From the NCBI GenBank assembly GCA_021793645.1, contig JAJYSJ010000002.1, forward strand, positions 144,753 to 208,752: a stretch of 64,000 nt of DNA. Reading direction: 5' to 3'. Below the pieces are notes generated by a model. That model was not told the DNA's origin, made no database searches, and saw nothing but the letters and a program-made list of their open reading frames with translations. The translations under genes and the position numbers were made by a program. This DNA comes from Bacillota bacterium. Its GTDB lineage: Bacteria; Bacillota; Sulfobacillia; JAJZYS01; JAJYTV01. Shown here in pieces: positions 24,058-33,327 of this stretch; position 1 is the stretch's first letter; each line of letters begins with the position of its first letter.

Positions 24058-24133
24058 GCGCCCGTAGCTCAGTGGATAGAGCGCTTGCCTCCGGAGCAAG
24101 AGGCCGCAGGTTCGAATCCCGCCGGGCGCGCCA
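24058..24133 (+). tRNA. tRNA-Arg (anticodon CCG)
   Basis: 76-nt cloverleaf with a 7-bp acceptor stem GCGCCCG/CGGGCGC, D-loop AGCTCAGTGGATAGAGCG, anticodon loop cuCCGga, T-loop GGTTCGAATCC and an encoded CCA. Confidence 0.9.
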
Positions 24134-24169
24134 AGTTTGAAACCCCGCAACCCGCTCCAGGAGCGGATT

Positions 24170-24217
24170 ACAGAACCGAGGCACTCCCGAAGGAGTGCCT
24201 CGGTTTCTGCGCTTTTG
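24170..24217. terminator. hairpin terminator downstream of tRNA-Arg (GAGGCACUcccgaaggAGUGCCUC + UUUCUGCgcUUUU)
   Basis: Read directly; it lies between the convergent tRNA and RibD_C genes. Confidence 0.5.
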
Positions 24218-25084: not shown

Positions 25085-26356
25085 TCAGTTGCGGTGGAGC
25101 GACTGCAGCCGCTCAGAGAGAAACCGCCGCTCCGCGTCGTTGCGCACGAGCTGCACGGCGCGACGCAAGGCGGAGGCCGCTTCGTCCGCGCGCCCCAACC
25201 GTTCAAGAAGCTCCGCCTTGATGGCGAAGAGATAGTGGTAGTCCGCGAGCCGGCCGCCCGCCTCGAGCGCCTCAACCTCCGCAAGGGCCGGCTGCGGTCC
25301 CTCCGATACGAAGACCGCCACCGCCCGGTTCAGTGCCACGACCGGGGAGGGCCAGAGCGATAGGAGACGGTCGTAGAGCAGCACGATGCGTGCCCAGTCC
25401 GTTTCGGTGTACGTCAGCGCCTCGGCATGGCAGAGCGCGATCTCCGCCTGCAGTCCGTAACGGCCAAGGGGGCCGGCGCGCGATGCATCGTCAACCAGCG
25501 TACGGGCTTCGCGGATCGCGGCCCGGTCCCACTTCGCGCGGTCCTGCTCCTCGAGGCGAAGCGCGGCGCCGGACGCGTCCACGCGGGTGGCGCGCCGTGC
25601 ACCCGTGACCAGCAGGAGTGCGAGAAGCGCGTGTGACTCCGGCTCATGCGGCATGAGCTCGGCCATGAGACGCGCAAGGTGGACCGAGTGGTCCAGCAAC
25701 GCATCGCGCGTCAGGGTGTCGCCAGATGGTGCCACGTGGCCCGCAGTGAACAGCAGATAGATCACGCCCAGCACGACGGCGAGGCGATCCGAAAGCTCAG
25801 CCGGATCCGGCATGGCGAAGGGGATTCGGGCCGTCGCGATCTTGCGCTTCGCCCGCGTCAGCCGAGCGCCCATCGTCGTGTCGGAAACGAGGAAAGCCCG
25901 GGCGATGTCCGCCGTAGAGAGGCCGCACACCAGTCGCAGTGTGAGCGCCATCTGCGCCTCCGGCGCCAGTGCGGGGTGGCAACAGAGGAAGATCAGGCGC
26001 AGCCGCTCGTCCGGGATCGCCGTCGCCGCCTGCGCAGACCGTGCACTTTCCGCCGTCCCCCCGTCGACCGCGGCAGTCTGCGCCTCTACGAGCAACGGAA
26101 GCTTCGACCGGAGCGTCGCCGCGCGCCGCACGGCGTCCACGGCCCGGCGCTTGGCGATGGTGGTGAGCCAGGCGGCTGCGTTCGCGGGGACTCCGTCCCG
26201 GGGCCAGGACTTGAGCGCCGCGGCATACGCCTCCTGCGCGCAGTCCTCGGCGAGGTCGAGGTCGCGCGTGATGCGCAGCGCAGCTGCAACGACCATCGCC
26301 CACGCGGCGCGGTGCGCATCCTCGAGCGCCCGCTCGATGTCAGACTGTCCGCTCAC
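25085..26356 (-). CDS. ECF-type RNA polymerase sigma factor with long C-terminal (TPR-like) extension (ECF42-like architecture)
   Basis: Sigma-70 region 2 (DCAQEAYAAALKSW..) and region 4 (LSTADIARAFLVSDTTMGARLTRAKRKIA), followed by a ~250-aa extension. GTG start just downstream of the YciI-like stop; the longer track ORF overlaps yciI and is rejected. Confidence 0.8.
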   Translation of the reverse strand: MSGQSDIERALEDAHRAAWAMVVAAALRITRDLDLAEDCAQEAYAAALKSWPRDGVPANAAAWLTTIAKRRAVDAVRRAATLRSKLPLLVEAQTAAVDGGTAESARSAQAATAIPDERLRLIFLCCHPALAPEAQMALTLRLVCGLSTADIARAFLVSDTTMGARLTRAKRKIATARIPFAMPDPAELSDRLAVVLGVIYLLFTAGHVAPSGDTLTRDALLDHSVHLARLMAELMPHEPESHALLALLLVTGARRATRVDASGAALRLEEQDRAKWDRAAIREARTLVDDASRAGPLGRYGLQAEIALCHAEALTYTETDWARIVLLYDRLLSLWPSPVVALNRAVAVFVSEGPQPALAEVEALEAGGRLADYHYLFAIKAELLERLGRADEAASALRRAVQLVRNDAERRFLSERLQSLHRN

Positions 26357-26681
26357 CGGCAATGGGCCGCACCTCCAGTCCGCCACCCCGCTGCAGAATC
26401 GGATTGCGCCGCGCGACGCGCAGGGCGCTGTCGAGGTCCGGGGCCTCGATGATGTAGACGCCGACAATGACCTCCTTGGCCTCGGTGAATGGCCCATCAA
26501 TGACGAGGTCGCCGCGTAGCGAAGTCGCCGTCGCGGCCGGCTCGAGGGCAAACGCCATGGACATTACTCCCTCGCGCTCAAGCTCGTCTGCGTGGCGGTC
26601 GTGCACCTCCATTTCCTCCACGGTGGCCTCGGCGGCGGCATCTGCGGCAGGGGCATAGAGCATGACCGCATATTTGGCCAT
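26340..26681 (-). CDS. YciI-like (YCII-related) domain protein
   Basis: 113-aa protein with a YCII-related fold pattern, co-oriented immediately upstream of the ECF sigma gene. Confidence 0.75.
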   Translation of the reverse strand: MAKYAVMLYAPAADAAAEATVEEMEVHDRHADELEREGVMSMAFALEPAATATSLRGDLVIDGPFTEAKEVIVGVYIIEAPDLDSALRVARRNPILQRGGGLEVRPIAGERTV

Positions 26682-26799: not shown

Positions 26800-26940
26800 A
26801 TCGCGCCTGCACGGGGTGGATCCGTTTTGGACCGTCGTTACCCCTCAAGTGGATCCCGTTTGGTCCATCGTAGCCAACGGTGGGAAACGACGGGGAAGCG
26901 TTGTCCCAAAACCGCTTCAGAAGGCGATGGCTAGCCTCCG
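26800..26940. repeat. copy C of the IS607/TnpB right-end (omegaRNA-scaffold-like) repeat, partial
   Basis: gggaaacgacggggaagcgttgtcccaaaaccgcttcagaagg matches copies at 31163-31320 and 36412-36552. It is preceded by an internal ~24-nt direct duplication (tggatccgttttggaccgtcgtta / tggatcccgtttggtccatcgtag). Confidence 0.45.
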
Positions 26941-27255: not shown

Positions 27256-28305
27256 CTAGATCTCGGGACCACCGAAATCCACTTCCGCCTGCACCAGGCG
27301 CTGAGCGTCACTCAGAAAAGCCTGCTTCATCTGCTCGAAATCCAGCGGCACCAGCATAGCCACATCCTTGGGGTCGACGCGCTCGACCTGCTGCAGCGCC
27401 TTGGCGAACCAGCTCCGGTTGAAGCCGGGGTCCTTCGCCTTCGCCACTTCCATCAGCTTGTCGAGACCATACCTGACCTCAAGCATGTACACGTCAACGA
27501 AGTCCCGCGTCGTGGCGCGGCCGAACAGAGCTAGCGTCTTGTCCGCGGCGAGGTCCCGCAGAGACCGCACCGGCATGCCCTCGACTGTAGACTTGGACTT
27601 CGCGAGCTGGAACGGCGAGTCTTGCCCGATCTCCACCTTGATCCCGGCCACCCACATGCGCACGAACGACGGCCGTTCGTCGCTGGCACTCCGCTGCACT
27701 GAAAGGCCATCCTGCTTGCACGCCTTCGCAAACTCGTCAGCCGCATCCCCCACCCGAATCCCCAAACTGAAGAAATCCAGGTCGTCGGATCGGCGATGAC
27801 CAAGGTAGGCAGCCGCAAGCGCCGTTCCGCCAGCCAGTTCGAAACCGCGTTGTGCCAGCACTTGAGCGGCCACACGCAACACCCGGCGATGCTCGTCTCC
27901 AAGTACCAGATCGCGCCTGTCCTGCACGTCGGCCGCCTCCTTGCAGACCATGCTCCACAGCTTCGCCGCGCCCCCGAACAAGGGGAGTTGGTCCACGATA
28001 GGCGCCAGGGCGGCGAGATCGAGACGGCGCCAGTCGTTGGCGTTCCCTTCCAAAAGGATGGAAGTAACGGCTCGCCGCGCATCGGCGTCATCGTTGATCT
28101 CAATCGGCTTGGGCCAGGACCAGAACAGGCGAATGGACTCGGGCGGGACGGTGCCGCCGGGGATGGCGCGGAGGGCCGACGCGTCTCTCGCCACCTCTCT
28201 CGCCACCTCGCCGCACCTCCCTTTCGGTCCCTTTGCTCGAAGGTACCACATTGGCGCTACAGAGACCGCAGGAAGAGCCTCTGCTTCAGGCGATGCCCGA
28301 ATCAC
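27256..28305 (-). CDS. nucleotidyltransferase of the AbiEii/AbiGii toxin family (DUF1814) with N-terminal extension
   Basis: Motif ELAGGTALAAAYLGHRRSDDLDFF, characteristic of AbiEii NTases, sits at residues ~160-185. ~130 aa precede it. No AbiEi-like partner is adjacent. Confidence 0.7.
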   Translation of the reverse strand: MIRASPEAEALPAVSVAPMWYLRAKGPKGRCGEVAREVARDASALRAIPGGTVPPESIRLFWSWPKPIEINDDADARRAVTSILLEGNANDWRRLDLAALAPIVDQLPLFGGAAKLWSMVCKEAADVQDRRDLVLGDEHRRVLRVAAQVLAQRGFELAGGTALAAAYLGHRRSDDLDFFSLGIRVGDAADEFAKACKQDGLSVQRSASDERPSFVRMWVAGIKVEIGQDSPFQLAKSKSTVEGMPVRSLRDLAADKTLALFGRATTRDFVDVYMLEVRYGLDKLMEVAKAKDPGFNRSWFAKALQQVERVDPKDVAMLVPLDFEQMKQAFLSDAQRLVQAEVDFGGPEI

Positions 28306-28395
28306 GACCGGTGCCGCCGACCCCGACTCTTCAACCTACCCGTGGTCGAAACACAGCAAGTTTCCGAAGACATCGTAGCGGATGCGACCGTCATC

Positions 28396-28983
28396 CTACT
28401 CCCCGTTGGCCCCCTGACCACCGACCGCTTGCAACTCCCTGCGCATCAAGACGCGTGCCTCAGGCTTGCGTCGCCTGATCTCGACGAACTGAAGTTCTGC
28501 GAACATCCCTGTGGTGCCCGTATAGGACGATGACGCCGAGCGCCTGCGCACAGCGGGATCGCGTGGCACCCCCTCGATCGCAGACGCGCCGTGAGTGGCG
28601 GCAAGCTCGACTGCTGCCCGCAGAAGGCCCTTCGCGATGCCCTGCCCCCGCTGGTTCTCGCAAACGAAGAAGCAGGGCACCGCCCAGACCCCCGCGCGCT
28701 CGTCGATGGGCCCCGTGTCGCGACCCCGCTGCAGGCGCGGGTAGTCCTCGCGCGGGCCGAGCGCCGCCCAGCCGACCGGCTCGCCGTCCCTGTAGGCGAT
28801 CAGCCCCGGGGGGCGCTTGGAGCCCTCGATGAGCTCCTTGGCCCGCTCTCTGGCACTTGACGTCGACTTTGTTCCTTCGTCGCGCCACCACATGCACCAG
28901 CACGAGCGATTGGGTCCCATCTGCCGGCAGATCTGTGCGAAGTCCTCCCAGCGCTCCGGGGTCAGTGGTCTGATATCGAGCAT
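28396..28983 (-). CDS. GNAT-family N-acetyltransferase
   Basis: Acetyl-CoA binding motif (QRGQGIAKGLLRAAVELA) in a GNAT-sized protein. Start at MLDIRPLT; the upstream 49 codons of the track ORF were judged non-coding. Confidence 0.75.
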   Translation of the reverse strand: MLDIRPLTPERWEDFAQICRQMGPNRSCWCMWWRDEGTKSTSSARERAKELIEGSKRPPGLIAYRDGEPVGWAALGPREDYPRLQRGRDTGPIDERAGVWAVPCFFVCENQRGQGIAKGLLRAAVELAATHGASAIEGVPRDPAVRRRSASSSYTGTTGMFAELQFVEIRRRKPEARVLMRRELQAVGGQGANGE

Positions 28984-29290
28984 CACCTGCTCCCCTTTCG
29001 CCCTTTTGGTTCGCGAGTGCCCGTGCCGCCCCTCCCCAATTGCTGGGGAAACTCGAGCTTCCGTGATAGAAGTCAGTGTACCGGAGTGAAAGTTGGAGAA
29101 GATTCGCCGGTGGGCGTAGATCTTGGCCATGAATTGCTGGCTGAAATAGCGGCGGGTGGCGGCGGCCCGCTCGTGGACCCCCGGCCCGCACCCCCCTCGT
29201 TTACACCGCGATAAGGGCCGCAGGCAGGGTCCGGAAGGGGTATGAACAGTTCGCTTGAAACCGATTCAGACCTTATCTAAACTTATCACT

Positions 29291-29917
29291 ATGGAGAGAT
29301 ATGTTGGGATAGGCGAGGCAGCCAAAGCGTTAGGTGTATCCATCACGACGCTCAGGCGGTGGGAAGTACAGGGCAAGCTGATTCCCGAACACACGGCCGG
29401 AAGGCACCGCCGCTATGACCTGGCCAAGCTCAGGCCGGAGATGCACCGCAGCACTCCCGATGAGCGGCGGACGATCGCGTACGCCCGCGTATCCAGCCAC
29501 GACCAGAAGGACGATCTGGAACGGCAGAAGCAGGTTCTGGAGCTGTACTGCGCTCGCCAGGGCTGGACGTTCGAGATGGTGTCGGACCTTGGATCGGGGA
29601 TGCATTACCAGAAGAAGGGTCTCAGGCGTCTCCTCGGCGAAATCCTCGACGGCCACGTGAGCCGGTTGGTGCTCACCCACAAGGACAGACTGCTGCGCTT
29701 CGGCGCGGAACTCGTCTTCGCCATCTGTGAGGCCAAAGAGGTGGAAGTCGTCATCCTCAACCAGGGCGAGGACACAACCTTTGAAGAGGATCTGGCCAAA
29801 GACGTTCTGGAGATCATTACGGTGTTCTCGGCCAGGCTCTACGGACGTCGCTCCCGCAGGAACCAGAAGCTGCTCGACGGTGTGCGCAGGGCGGTCGAGG
29901 AGGCGCAGGAATGCTGA
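29291..29917 (+). CDS. tnpA: IS607-family transposase TnpA (MerR-like HTH + serine recombinase)
   Basis: N-terminal MerR-type HTH (YVGIGEAAKALGVSITTLRRWE) and a serine-recombinase catalytic region (IAYARVSSHDQ). Confidence 0.85.
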   Translation: MERYVGIGEAAKALGVSITTLRRWEVQGKLIPEHTAGRHRRYDLAKLRPEMHRSTPDERRTIAYARVSSHDQKDDLERQKQVLELYCARQGWTFEMVSDLGSGMHYQKKGLRRLLGEILDGHVSRLVLTHKDRLLRFGAELVFAICEAKEVEVVILNQGEDTTFEEDLAKDVLEIITVFSARLYGRRSRRNQKLLDGVRRAVEEAQEC

Positions 29918-31119
29918 TGGCGCACAGGATCGCACTCAATCCCAACCGAAGGCAGGCGACGTACTTCGCAAAGGCGGCGGGGACGGCGCGATTCGCGTAC
30001 AACTGGGCGCTTGCGGAGTGGGACCGTCAGTACACGGCGCACCGTGAGGATGCGTCCCTCCCTGCCCCCTCGCAGGGGGCCCTTCGTCGCCAGCTGAACG
30101 CGATCAAGCGTACGGAGTTCCCGTGGATGCTTGAGGTGACAAAGAACGCACCCCAGATGGCGATCATCCAGCTCGGACAGGCATTCCAGAACTTTTTCGC
30201 AGGTCGAGCGAGACGCCCAAGGTGCCGAAGGAAGGGCGTCGACGATCACTTCACCCTGACGAATGATCAGTTTTGTGTGGCGGGGCGGCGCATCCGCATC
30301 CCGAACCTCGGATGGGTGCGCATGCGTGAGAAGCTGCGCTTCCAGGGTAAGATCGTGTCGGCCACGATCTCCCGAAGCGCGGATCGCTGGTTTGTCTCCA
30401 TCACCGTGGAGACGGACCAGGCTCCGAAGCGTCCTGCAGAACACCTGGGCGCGGTTGGTGTGGATCTCGGCGTACTCACCCTTGCAACGCTCTCGACGGG
30501 GGAGCGGATCCCTGGTCCGAGGGTGCTCAGGAAGCGGGTTGGACAGCTTCGCCGCCTGTCGCGGAGTCTCAGCCGCAAGCAGAGGGGATCGAAGAACCGT
30601 GCCAAAGCGAGAGCCAAGCTGGCACGTCTTCATGCCCGGATCGCCGATATCCGGCTGGACTCCCTGCATAAGCTCACTTCGGACCTCGCGCGCCGCTTCG
30701 ATGTGATCGGCATCGAGGACCTGAACGTTCGAGGCATGGTGCGCAACCACCGCCTTGCCCGCTCGATCGCCGACATGGGCCTTCGCGAACTGCGCAGGCA
30801 GCTCGAGTACAAGGCCGCGCGGCGCGGAGCCGTCGTAGTGGTGGCGGATCGCTTCTTTCCGAGCAGCAAGCGCTGCTCTGCCTGCGGCTACATCCAAAAC
30901 GAGATGCCGCTGTCGGTACGCTTGTGGACATGCCCGGCTTGCCGCATCACACACGACCGGGACCTGAATGCGGCAGTCAACCTGGCCCAATACGCCGTGA
31001 GTTCCACGGTGTCTGCCTGTGGAGGGGAAGGCTCTGGCGACGGTCATCCGGCTGTAGCGAAACCAGCCCCGGCGAAACAGGAAGTTAGCGCCAAGATACC
31101 CTTGCGTAGTTTTGGATAG
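29911..31119 (+). CDS. tnpB: TnpB (OrfB, RuvC-like RNA-guided endonuclease)
   Basis: RuvC-I (GVDLGV), RuvC-II (IGIEDLNVRGM) and a C-terminal zinc finger (CSACGYIQN..CPACRITHDRDLNAAVNL). Confidence 0.9.
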   Translation: MLMAHRIALNPNRRQATYFAKAAGTARFAYNWALAEWDRQYTAHREDASLPAPSQGALRRQLNAIKRTEFPWMLEVTKNAPQMAIIQLGQAFQNFFAGRARRPRCRRKGVDDHFTLTNDQFCVAGRRIRIPNLGWVRMREKLRFQGKIVSATISRSADRWFVSITVETDQAPKRPAEHLGAVGVDLGVLTLATLSTGERIPGPRVLRKRVGQLRRLSRSLSRKQRGSKNRAKARAKLARLHARIADIRLDSLHKLTSDLARRFDVIGIEDLNVRGMVRNHRLARSIADMGLRELRRQLEYKAARRGAVVVVADRFFPSSKRCSACGYIQNEMPLSVRLWTCPACRITHDRDLNAAVNLAQYAVSSTVSACGGEGSGDGHPAVAKPAPAKQEVSAKIPLRSFG

Positions 31120-31162: not shown

Positions 31163-31320
31163 GAGACACGCTTGCTAACGGTTTGCTAACGCTTTTTGAG
31201 AGAAACGGCGGCATACGGCGGGAAACGACGGGAAAGCATTGGCCCAAAAACCGCTTCAGAACGCCATTGCGGCAAGTCACGGGATACCACGGAAAGCCCT
31301 CTCCTTGCCTCCGGAGCAAG
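31163..31320 (+). repeat. copy A of the right-end / omegaRNA-scaffold-like repeat directly after tnpB
   Basis: ttgctaacgctttttgagagaaacggcgg...gggaaacgacgggaaagc..ccgcttcagaa..ggaaagccctctccttgcctccggagca, with structured stem-loops. It ends exactly where the partial tRNA-Arg copy begins. Confidence 0.5.
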
Positions 31321-31437
31321 AGGCCGCAGGTTCGAATCCCGCCGGGCGCGCCAAGTTTGAAGCCCCGCAACCCGCTCCAGGAGCGGATTACAGAACCGAG
31401 GCACTCTTGATGTAGTGCCTCGGTTTCTGCTCTTGCT
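31304..31437 (+). repeat. direct repeat of the tRNA-Arg(CCG) 3' half (anticodon arm to CCA) plus ~85 nt of tRNA-downstream sequence; candidate att site
   Basis: cttgcctccggagcaagaggccgcaggttcgaatcccgccgggcgcgccaagtttgaa[g]ccccgcaacccgctccaggagcggattacagaaccgaggcactc matches 24081-24189 with 1 mismatch. Homology continues through the terminator hairpin with a diverged loop. Confidence 0.8.
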
Positions 31438-31774
31438 AACGCTTTTTCTTGGTTCCAGTTTGGCGGTTTCCAGTTCGCGTGCCGCTGATCACTGCGTCCA
31501 GCCTGTTCGCTGCCTCACGTTGCAGGTTCGGTAGGACACGGCTGTATGTGTCCATGGTCATGTCGATACGGCTGTGGCCGAGACGCTCTTGGACGATTTT
31601 CGGGTGGACGCCCTCGGCCAGCAGAAGAGTCGCCATCGTGTGGCGCATGTCGTGTGGCCTGAAGTGCGATAAGCCAGCGCGCTTGAGTACGCGGGCGTAG
31701 TCGCGACCCTCCTGGACGCGCGGCGCGGGGGTGAGGCGAAGACCGTGATGGCGGATCTGGCTCTGAGCCTTCAC
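31436..31774 (-). pseudogene. tyrosine recombinase/integrase C-terminal fragment (5'-truncated)
   Basis: Only the last ~110 aa of a phage-integrase catalytic domain are present (HDMRHTMATLL ... LGHSRIDMTMDTYSRV, i.e. the His/Arg/Tyr region). No N-terminal domains lie upstream. Confidence 0.7.
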
Positions 31775-32021: not shown

Positions 32022-32384
32022 TTAGAGATCGATCTCGGGATCTCGCTTTGTGGGTACCAGCTTCTCCAGCCTCGCATGCAACGGCGGCACATCTTTCGTC
32101 GCAATCTTCCACACGAGATCAAGCCGAACACTGGCATATCCGTGAATGAGCGTGTTGCGAAGATCCTTAACCACCCGCCACGGTATCTCCGCGTAGAGGG
32201 ATTGGTAGACTGGGCTCACTTTCGAGCCGGCCTCTCCGATGATCTCCAGTGCTCGGATCACCGCGTCCTGGGTGCGCTCATCGGCCTCGAACGCGGGCCA
32301 ATCGAACCCGGCAGTGTATCGTTCCACCTTGGCACAGGCGTCGCGCATGTTGCGGACGTACATCTCATCAGTGTGTAGCGACAT
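32022..32384 (-). CDS. hepT: HepT-like toxin (DUF86, nucleotidyltransferase substrate-binding/RNase domain)
   Basis: R-x4-H-x-Y motif (RNTLIHGY) in a 120-aa protein overlapping the mntA-like gene. Confidence 0.8.
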   Translation of the reverse strand: MSLHTDEMYVRNMRDACAKVERYTAGFDWPAFEADERTQDAVIRALEIIGEAGSKVSPVYQSLYAEIPWRVVKDLRNTLIHGYASVRLDLVWKIATKDVPPLHARLEKLVPTKRDPEIDL

Positions 32385-32682
32385 AGACGACCCTCCTGCG
32401 TCGGAGCACGTCCTCGGCGATGTATGGGCTCAGGGTGCTCTTCTCGATGAGATCGACCTGACGGTGGAACACCTCGTCCTCTAGCGCATGCTTCATCCTA
32501 ATGAAATCAAAAAGGCTCTCCACAGGGCTATCCTGCTCGAAGTCCACCAGTACGTCGACGTCGCTCTCTGCGGTGAAGTCATCGCGGAGGACCGAGCCGA
32601 ACAGGGCCAACTCCCGGACCTTGAAACGCTGGCACACCTGGGCAAGATTGGCCGCGTCCACTGCGGTCTGCACTCCCTCCAC
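32368..32682 (-). CDS. mntA: MntA-like minimal nucleotidyltransferase antitoxin
   Basis: NTase fold motif GS-x10-DxD (LFGSVLRDDFTAESDVDVLV). GTG start with a G-rich RBS; the longer track ORF is rejected. Confidence 0.7.
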   Translation of the reverse strand: MEGVQTAVDAANLAQVCQRFKVRELALFGSVLRDDFTAESDVDVLVDFEQDSPVESLFDFIRMKHALEDEVFHRQVDLIEKSTLSPYIAEDVLRRRRVVYVATH

Positions 32683-33327
32683 GATGCTTCCCCCCCCTTG
32701 GCCGCAGTATAGCATTGGTCCCTGGATGACGCATAAGTGCGGGAGCACGGGACATGACGATCGCCCTCCGCTACATTTGCGCAAAGCGTTTGGCCACTGG
32801 CTCACCTGGATGCAGCACGGTGCTGATCGGGACGAGGCTCTCGATATCGTTGAGCACCAAGCGGCCGTTAGGAAGCCGCCCGAAGTTTTCGGGGATGGCG
32901 TCGCCCACGCCGTCAGGCACGGCATGCTCCAGGCCTGCCGATCAGGGCCGCGAGCTTCTTAACCGCGGCGACATGAGCTGCCGCGCGAGGCGACGGCTCT
33001 TACCGGAACCCGTGGAGCCGACCAGCAGGGTGTGTTCGTCTCTCGTTGTGACCCAGTCCGTGGTGCCCGCGCGGCCGACGAGGACGCCGCTCTCCTTGGC
33101 GCCCGGACGCCAGGCGTTGAGCGTCCGCGTCATGTCGCCGGCCGTGCGCCTGTGTGCGGTGCCGTACTCGCCCTTGCCGGCTGCCTTGGGGCCGCCAGAT
33201 GCGACAGGGCTGGAACCACTCGCCAGCCGCCAGTTCCAAGCGAAACTCCGGTGCGTACGGCAGCCTCGACTTCGGCATCCTGGACGTCCTCCTCTCGATC
33301 TCCTAGACGCACGCCCGTGGGCCTTTG

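Follow-up and report, generated by a model that had tools for sequence, protein, structure and literature searches.

An AbiEii-family nucleotidyltransferase of a Bacillota bacterium carries a fused copy of a small upstream-encoded helical protein

AbiE/MenT nucleotidyltransferase toxins are among the commonest defence and toxin-antitoxin modules, and such modules are currently recognised by their AbiEi-AbiEii gene pair. What occupies the place of the AbiEi antitoxin at a locus where an AbiEii gene stands alone? This question is raised by a minus-strand gene on contig JAJYSJ010000002.1 (assembly GCA_021793645.1) of a Bacillota bacterium, within a stretch of 64,000 nucleotides (positions 144,753 to 208,752 of the contig; hereafter the window, whose own coordinates are used throughout). 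A preliminary description of the locus had noted an AbiEii-type nucleotidyltransferase (NTase) with a long N-terminal extension, preceded by a GNAT acetyltransferase gene, and had proposed that either the extension or the acetyltransferase substitutes for AbiEi, or that the gene is a degenerate orphan toxin. Here we show that the N-terminal ~95 residues of the protein are a fused copy of a small helical protein which, beside related but shorter AbiEii genes, is encoded by its own gene lying immediately upstream and translationally coupled. On balance, the gene appears to merge into one chain what is elsewhere a two-gene toxin module of AbiEii/MenT type, with the partner likely acting as its antitoxin.

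The gene and its nucleotidyltransferase domain

The 349-aa open reading frame (ORF) of the preliminary description is present at 27256..28305 on the minus strand, starting at a GTG, but is only the mechanically longest one. The real product is almost certainly a protein of 316 aa read from the GTG at 28206 (27256..28206, minus strand, stop codon included; translation checked). This start was chosen because all close homologues of the window protein are 316-321 aa long, because an identical protein of 316 aa is deposited at NCBI (MDA8344612.1, from a metagenome-assembled genome (MAG) of Thermaerobacter sp.), and because a Shine-Dalgarno-like GGGAGG, read from the sequence at 28216..28221 (minus strand), lies 9 nt upstream of the GTG. 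The NCBI protein is named only "nucleotidyl transferase AbiEii/AbiGii toxin family protein". As the product is 316 aa long and the Pfam domain begins at residue 113, the N-terminal extension, which is real, measures ~112 aa and not the ~130 aa first described (or ~145 aa in the longest ORF). A scan for sigma-70 promoters and terminators around the gene gave no usable minus-strand signal.

The first codons (28183-28206, minus strand) consist of two tandem copies of a 12-nt unit, GTGGCGAGAGAG, encoding (V/M)ARE-VARE. Among near-identical proteins from other samples, one of 320 aa (P0256) possesses one extra unit, MAREVAREVARD, and another of 312 aa (P0255) was called from the second unit. Thus, the copy number of this 5'-end repeat varies among strains.

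The AbiEii/DUF1814 nucleotidyltransferase domain was located by Pfam, PADLOC and Foldseek to residues 113-301 (27304..27870, minus strand). The Pfam family AbiEii (PF08843) matched residues 146-334 of the 349-aa ORF at E 1.2e-15 and 58.6 bits (cutoff 22.5), and thirteen PADLOC AbiEii models matched the same ORF. The signature recognised at the outset, GG-T-AL...HRRSDDLDFF beginning near residue 160 of the 349-aa ORF, was borne out. We took the motif definitions of Dy et al. (hG[G/S] ... DhD, motif II including an arginine; PMC3985639) and compared the motifs in a family alignment of 26 members with identities down to 33%. Motif I, the hG[G/S] of pol-beta type NTases, corresponds to G126-G127-T128 (27823..27831) and is invariant or nearly so. 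Motif II, S140-D-D142-L-D144 (27775..27789), supplies the two catalytic aspartates together with a serine. In their contexts the two motifs read LAGGT(126-128)AL and H-R-R-S140-D-D142-L-D144-F, and the motif-II arginine is present. Motifs III and IV, DLAADK223TLALFGR230 and R234-D235-F-V-D238, follow at 27484..27552 (all minus strand); the former has its lysine in hydrophobic surroundings, in the pattern K..A....R, and the latter the acidic residue peculiar to the family. Across the 26 members, motif I was invariant at G127, motif II at R138, S140 and D142, motif III at K223 and R230, and motif IV at R234, D235, F236 and D238; D144, the second aspartate of motif II, was kept in at least 90% of them.

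These residues can be placed against MenT1, in which T39, D41, K137 and D152 are conserved and in which the phospho-acceptor serine or threonine obeys the position rule [S/T]-x-D-x-D (PMC11375011). By this rule, S140 takes the position of the phospho-acceptors T39 of MenT1 and S78 of MenT3. Furthermore, the spacing of 15 residues from K223 to D238 equals that from K137 to D152 in MenT1.

An AlphaFold (AF2) model generated on the family alignment had a mean predicted local distance difference test score (pLDDT) of 91.7 and a predicted template modelling score (pTM) of 0.86. When this model was compared with the PDB using Foldseek, the best matches were the Helicobacter pylori NTase JHP933 (4ok0_B, E 1.2e-6), MenT4 (6y56, E 1.1e-4) and MenT1 (8an5_B, E 6.1e-4), in keeping with a bi-lobed NTase fold. 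The NTase half is thus a member of the AbiEii/DUF1814 family on every sequence and fold measure applied. Comprising about the C-terminal 215 residues, it is, judging by the residues retained, catalytically intact.

The N-terminal domain is a fused copy of a small upstream-encoded protein

About 95 aa of the N-terminal extension form a folded domain of their own. The helical partner domain was delimited to residues ~5-100 (27907..28194, minus strand) by alignments, by its stand-alone fold and by profile matches. Modelled alone, it adopted a confident helical fold (pLDDT 89.0, pTM 0.80). Two alignments revealed conservation of W29, L51, E53, G54 and W84, within a motif that reads RLFWSW..P...A.A.IL.EG...DW....L...LPL....LW. 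The fused form is widespread: ~60 homologue clusters of 300-330 aa, from Chloroflexi, Firmicutes and other MAGs of several phyla, share the N-terminal domain.

A fused domain resembling an antitoxin had been suspected in this region, and profile searches did uncover a homologue, namely a separate small partner protein that is not AbiEi-like in sequence or fold. A word-indexed profile search with the domain returned only three proteins, of 61-76 aa; the genes of two of these overlap the start of an AbiEii gene (224-225 aa) on their contigs. An index-free search with a hidden Markov model, covering 1.84 billion representative proteins (E <= 1e-3, clustered at 50% identity), yielded 213 clusters, mostly free-standing proteins of 70-140 aa. 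Of the 142 clusters newly listed, 114 were no longer than 150 aa (83 of up to 110 aa and 31 of 111-150 aa). A profile made from the free-standing proteins alone matched the window ORF at E 2.3e-12, and the extension is therefore what the clade usually encodes as an upstream partner, here joined in frame to the NTase. The preliminary description had also considered that the N-terminal region might be a common part of standalone DUF1814 proteins; this holds inside the fused clade, but elsewhere the region is a separate gene.

The arrangement of the two genes was assessed from both sides. A pattern derived from a six-member subgroup of the small proteins was used to collect 80 loci from many phyla, with one genome per species, and the 73 loci with at least 700 nt of downstream sequence were judged. 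An AbiEii-type ORF lay directly downstream on the same strand in 61 of the 73, usually overlapping the small gene. In the remaining 12 the small gene was an orphan followed by unrelated genes. A second scan, of metagenome NTase loci, was seeded with the fused-family alignment and likewise gave 80 loci. Twelve were too close to a contig edge to judge; in the other 68, the domain was found in a separate ORF immediately upstream 55 times and fused to the NTase four times, and no domain was found at nine loci.

A neighbour-joining tree of the NTase domains, which is rough and in which some unfused leaves may be truncated gene calls, placed the window protein in a clade with 57 of 61 members fused. 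A second, small fused clade (P0067, P0117 and P0132) was nested among split systems, which implies at least two fusion events. Comparison with a relative of 81% identity gave dN/dS values of 0.23 for the N-terminal domain and 0.22 for the NTase domain. With values of ~0.22-0.23 in both halves, the gene is not decaying.

The partner domain was also found in other combinations. Among 126 members scanned, five (P0144, P0164, P0200, P0220 and P0224) possess an XRE-type helix-turn-helix (HTH) head and one (P0145) a Phd/YefM antitoxin head; in these longer members the partner domain is C-terminal, behind the head. In three proteins of 184-207 aa (P0150, P0168 and P0176) the small partner domain occurs twice in tandem. 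Part of the profile was matched repeatedly by two very long proteins, P0112 (3705 aa, 19 stretches) and P0226 (2045 aa, 8 stretches); these matches may be artefacts of low complexity or of repeats.

Scans of the N-terminal 145 residues of the 349-aa ORF against Pfam, NCBIfam and PADLOC returned no match, and PDB sequence searches with two N-domain profiles gave chance-level matches only. The sole Pfam family to match the shared region was DUF6922 (PF21956), an uncharacterised family of small proteins whose model leaves most relatives of the N-terminal domain outside. DUF6922 matched 11 of the 126 free-standing relatives (best E 4e-7) and 2 of 18 fused N-terminal domains (best E 0.009), while the window's own domain did not match it even at E <= 10. 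A tie to DUF6922 would thus be weak and distant at best, and transitive through relatives only. A literature search retrieved no publication on DUF6922 and none on fused DUF1814 toxins.

Role of the partner domain

The small protein stands in the place of AbiEi or MenA and, as gene order and domain composition suggest, is most likely a neutralising partner, that is, an antitoxin. We infer this firstly because the partner gene lies upstream of the NTase gene and overlaps it, and secondly because some versions are headed by DNA-binding domains of XRE or Phd/YefM type; antitoxins are normally built in this way, from a head that binds DNA and a tail that binds the toxin. The same inference is drawn from the existence of orphan partner genes and from a locus of Isoptericola croceus (JARLLG010000001.1; L178, 3001-4112). 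Here, an XRE-HTH plus partner-domain protein of 173 aa (WP_277209298.1, annotated only as a helix-turn-helix protein) is intact, while the AbiEii gene downstream is split into pieces of 72 and 100 aa and has lost the middle of its domain. In the usual order of decay it is the toxin that is lost first and the antitoxin that is retained. Lastly, the contexts are mobile: the window has its tRNA repeat, an integrase fragment and an IS607 element, and other loci have genes for plasmid mobilisation or the type IV secretion system (T4SS), or again part of an integrase. The earlier suggestion that the N-terminal extension stands in for AbiEi is thus supported in its main point, the extension being homologous to the small partner usually found upstream in this clade.

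How might such a protein work? MenA1 (7.4 kDa), MenA3 and AbiEi are unrelated antitoxins that neutralise DUF1814 toxins in the same manner, by inducing self-phosphorylation at a Ser or Thr two residues before the first catalytic Asp (PMC11375011; bioRxiv 10.64898/2026.01.19.700257). CapRel is a fused toxin-antitoxin that is autoinhibited and senses phage proteins (PMC9712102). By analogy with MenT1, MenT3, MenT4 and AbiEii, the NTase would extend the 3'-CCA ends of tRNAs by further nucleotides, which would block aminoacylation and arrest growth. Most economically, though speculatively and on the model of CapRel, the partner domain may hold the NTase off in cis within the fused protein. Silencing might be achieved either by occlusion of the active-site face or by induced self-phosphorylation of Ser140 in S-x-D-x-D, the latter being what MenA1, MenA3 and AbiEi bring about in trans. 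Release might then follow from a signal such as the binding of a phage protein or proteolysis, a step that is equally speculative. The full extension of this scheme, a one-gene phage sensor and effector whose N-terminal domain both silences the NTase and receives a phage or stress signal, with DUF6922-like small proteins as a large family of antitoxins, we regard as possible but rather unlikely.

Several points weigh against this explanation. An obligate helper subunit could be joined permanently and covalently to the enzyme at least as naturally as an antagonist could. Searches of viral collections returned only two distant AbiEii-domain matches and no partner-domain match, and neither a trigger nor a protease site nor any connection to phages came to light. 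Additionally, both sets of loci described above were pattern-seeded from particular subgroups, and their co-occurrence rates hold for those subgroups only.

The first of these points leads to a different role, in which the N-terminal domain and the free small protein are a positive accessory subunit, serving substrate recognition, oligomerisation or activation of an RNA-modifying nucleotidyltransferase; the fusion would then simply unite two partners that depend on each other. We consider this doubtful, though it deserves to be taken seriously. Obligate partners typically show stable fusions of this kind, which arose at least twice and are under purifying selection in both halves, and no known antitoxin fold resembles the domain. 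Nor is a second regulator gene conserved next to the fused genes: no other conserved upstream gene was found beside them, their neighbours being DUF192-like, RHH/NikA-like, PIN or integrase-fragment genes, or nothing at all. Against this role, the domain is also found joined to XRE-HTH and Phd/YefM heads, the standard antitoxin build, and its free-standing form is encoded upstream in a gene that overlaps that of the toxin. Both the orphan partner genes and the locus with an intact partner and a broken NTase fit toxin-first decay, and the contexts are those of mobile elements. We therefore retain the antitoxin as the preferred role of the partner.

The alternative that the upstream GNAT gene has replaced AbiEi to form a two-gene module with the NTase is refuted by its pattern of co-occurrence. 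The two genes do share a strand and an accessory segment. The GNAT gene (minus strand, likely start ATG 28983, 195 aa, PF00583 at E 2.6e-10; the 195-aa form is also reported by gene callers on a near-identical contig) had been placed 90 nt from the NTase gene, which is correct for the first possible start of the ORF, but the distance to GTG 28206 is 189 nt. However, among ~170 other loci, phmmer (E <= 1e-3) found a homologue of this acetyltransferase only at L001, which derives from the same or a near-identical strain. NTase relatives of 84%, 81% and 74% identity have other upstream genes or none, and the co-occurrence of this GNAT subfamily with DUF1814 genes, which the preliminary description had proposed to test, is consequently not conserved. 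The window GNAT matched no PADLOC defence model. At the related loci L003 and L004, a different GNAT of 157 aa lies downstream on the opposite strand, and phmmer did not match it to that of the window. As its homologues among these loci are confined to the window and L001, and as close NTase relatives have other neighbours, the GNAT gene is a chance, unrelated neighbour.

Also refuted, by conservation, is the alternative that the gene is a degenerate toxin orphaned when its antitoxin was lost, its N-terminal extension being without meaning. No AbiEi gene lies nearby, and the gene does sit amid decaying mobile DNA (an integrase fragment and an IS element). However, its catalytic residues are kept across the 26 aligned members, all of them invariant bar the second motif-II aspartate, its N-terminal domain is conserved, confidently folded and under purifying selection, and the fused form recurs in its ~60 clusters of several phyla.

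Genomic surroundings and known systems

The neighbouring genes were scanned with Pfam from 24.3 to 32.9 kb of the window. None was AbiEi-like, in agreement with the preliminary description. Other genes in this interval encode a RibD_C protein, an extracytoplasmic function (ECF)-type sigma factor with a DUF6596 domain, a YCII protein, an IS607-type pair, an integrase fragment and a HepT/MNT pair.

The accessory segment flanked by tRNA-Arg, as first described, was recovered. A tRNA-Arg(CCG) gene lies at 24058-24133, and a direct repeat of 131 nt (24084-24214 and 31304-31434, 95% identical), comprising the 3' 50 nt of the tRNA and 81 nt downstream of it, brackets a segment of 7.2 kb; the AbiEii/GNAT pair lies between the tRNA gene and the second copy of the repeat. 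Each copy includes a 32-nt hairpin (24174-24205 and 31394-31425). The C-terminal fragment of an integrase (31436-31774, minus strand) is found just outside the second copy. Together, the repeat and the position of this fragment suggest tandem or decayed integrative elements at the tRNA-Arg gene. The IS607-type element said to adjoin the pair was likewise confirmed, with a MerR-plus-resolvase gene at 29255-29917 and a TnpB gene at 29911-31119.

A second direct repeat, of 55 nt and ~87% identity (26877-26931 and 31215-31270), flanks 4.3 kb holding the fused AbiEii gene, the GNAT gene and IS607. Its right copy is situated ~100-150 nt past the tnpB stop codon, just before the partial tRNA copy, and may be part of the right end of IS607 or of its guide-RNA region; the left copy may be the relic of another such end. 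Rfam gave no match at either 55-nt repeat.

Two further gene pairs were observed. One combines a HepT-like RNase gene (32022-32384) with a gene for an MNT-type nucleotidyltransferase, the two overlapping at the end of the latter (32022-32925 for the pair, minus strand); the MNT-type ORF reaches 32925 but was called as 104 aa on a near-identical contig. This constitutes a second, canonical toxin-antitoxin pair, 4 kb from the fused AbiEii gene. Inside the tRNA-flanked segment, a YCII-domain gene overlaps the start of the gene for the ECF-type sigma factor, whose DUF6596 domain is C-terminal (25085-26681, minus strand); this pair does not resemble defence-island cargo.

Fused AbiEii genes elsewhere were seen in plasmid- or conjugation-like contexts. 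On L005 (4572-8860) the gene follows an RHH/NikA-like gene and precedes MobL and VirD4-type genes, with a ParM-like gene nearby. On L003 (4423-5448) it lies near T4SS pilin and TrbL genes.

The free-standing relatives of the partner domain show that many short AbiEii genes, forming a large clade, are paired not with AbiEi but with a small helical protein of another, unnamed family (the 213 clusters described above). Tools that require AbiEi will label such genes as solitary toxins or overlook the system. The fused form offers a natural construct for asking whether a minimal partner acts by sequestration or by induced self-phosphorylation of the serine, a mechanistic question in recent MenT/AbiEii work. 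If the N-terminal domain does both silence the NTase and receive such a signal, the AbiE/MenT family would include an abortive-infection system encoded by one gene and comparable to CapRel, and DUF6922-like small proteins would form a large unrecognised family of antitoxins for DUF1814 toxins in many phyla.

The toxin is of a known kind, while the partner family and the single-chain architecture are, as far as we found in the literature, undescribed. Besides the DUF6922 family treated above, three known systems come closest. AbiE of Streptococcus agalactiae and Lactococcus is a type IV (now proposed type VII) toxin-antitoxin and abortive-infection system. With it the window protein shares the Pfam family of the toxin domain (PF08843/DUF1814) and motifs I-IV, and its serine occupies the phospho-acceptor position of AbiE (T65 of AbiEii). 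In contrast to AbiE, however, the window has no adjacent AbiEi gene (COG5340, a winged HTH plus a C-terminal domain); the partner is instead an unrelated helical domain of ~70-95 aa, fused to the N-terminus of the toxin.

In MenAT1 of Mycobacterium tuberculosis (Rv0078B-Rv0078A), too, a short DUF1814 NTase has a very small partner encoded upstream, one devoid of any DNA-binding domain. MenA1 induces auto-phosphorylation of its toxin at T39 in T-R-D-x-D, which matches S140-D-D-L-D here (PMC11375011). The present partner is not homologous to MenA1 (Rv0078B), however, and the system is not a MenAT1-type pair.

CapRel(SJ46) differs in its toxin, a toxSAS pyrophosphokinase where the window has a DUF1814 NTase, and in the order of its parts, its antitoxin domain being C-terminal whereas the partner domain here is N-terminal. 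CapRel provides the precedent for autoinhibition in cis that a phage protein relieves, whereas the present family is not known to have a trigger or a defence phenotype. Yet the architecture is shared: in each case a single polypeptide unites a toxin domain that modifies the 3' end of tRNA with a homologue of the separate antitoxin of related two-gene systems (PMC9712102), both roles being predicted ones in the present case.

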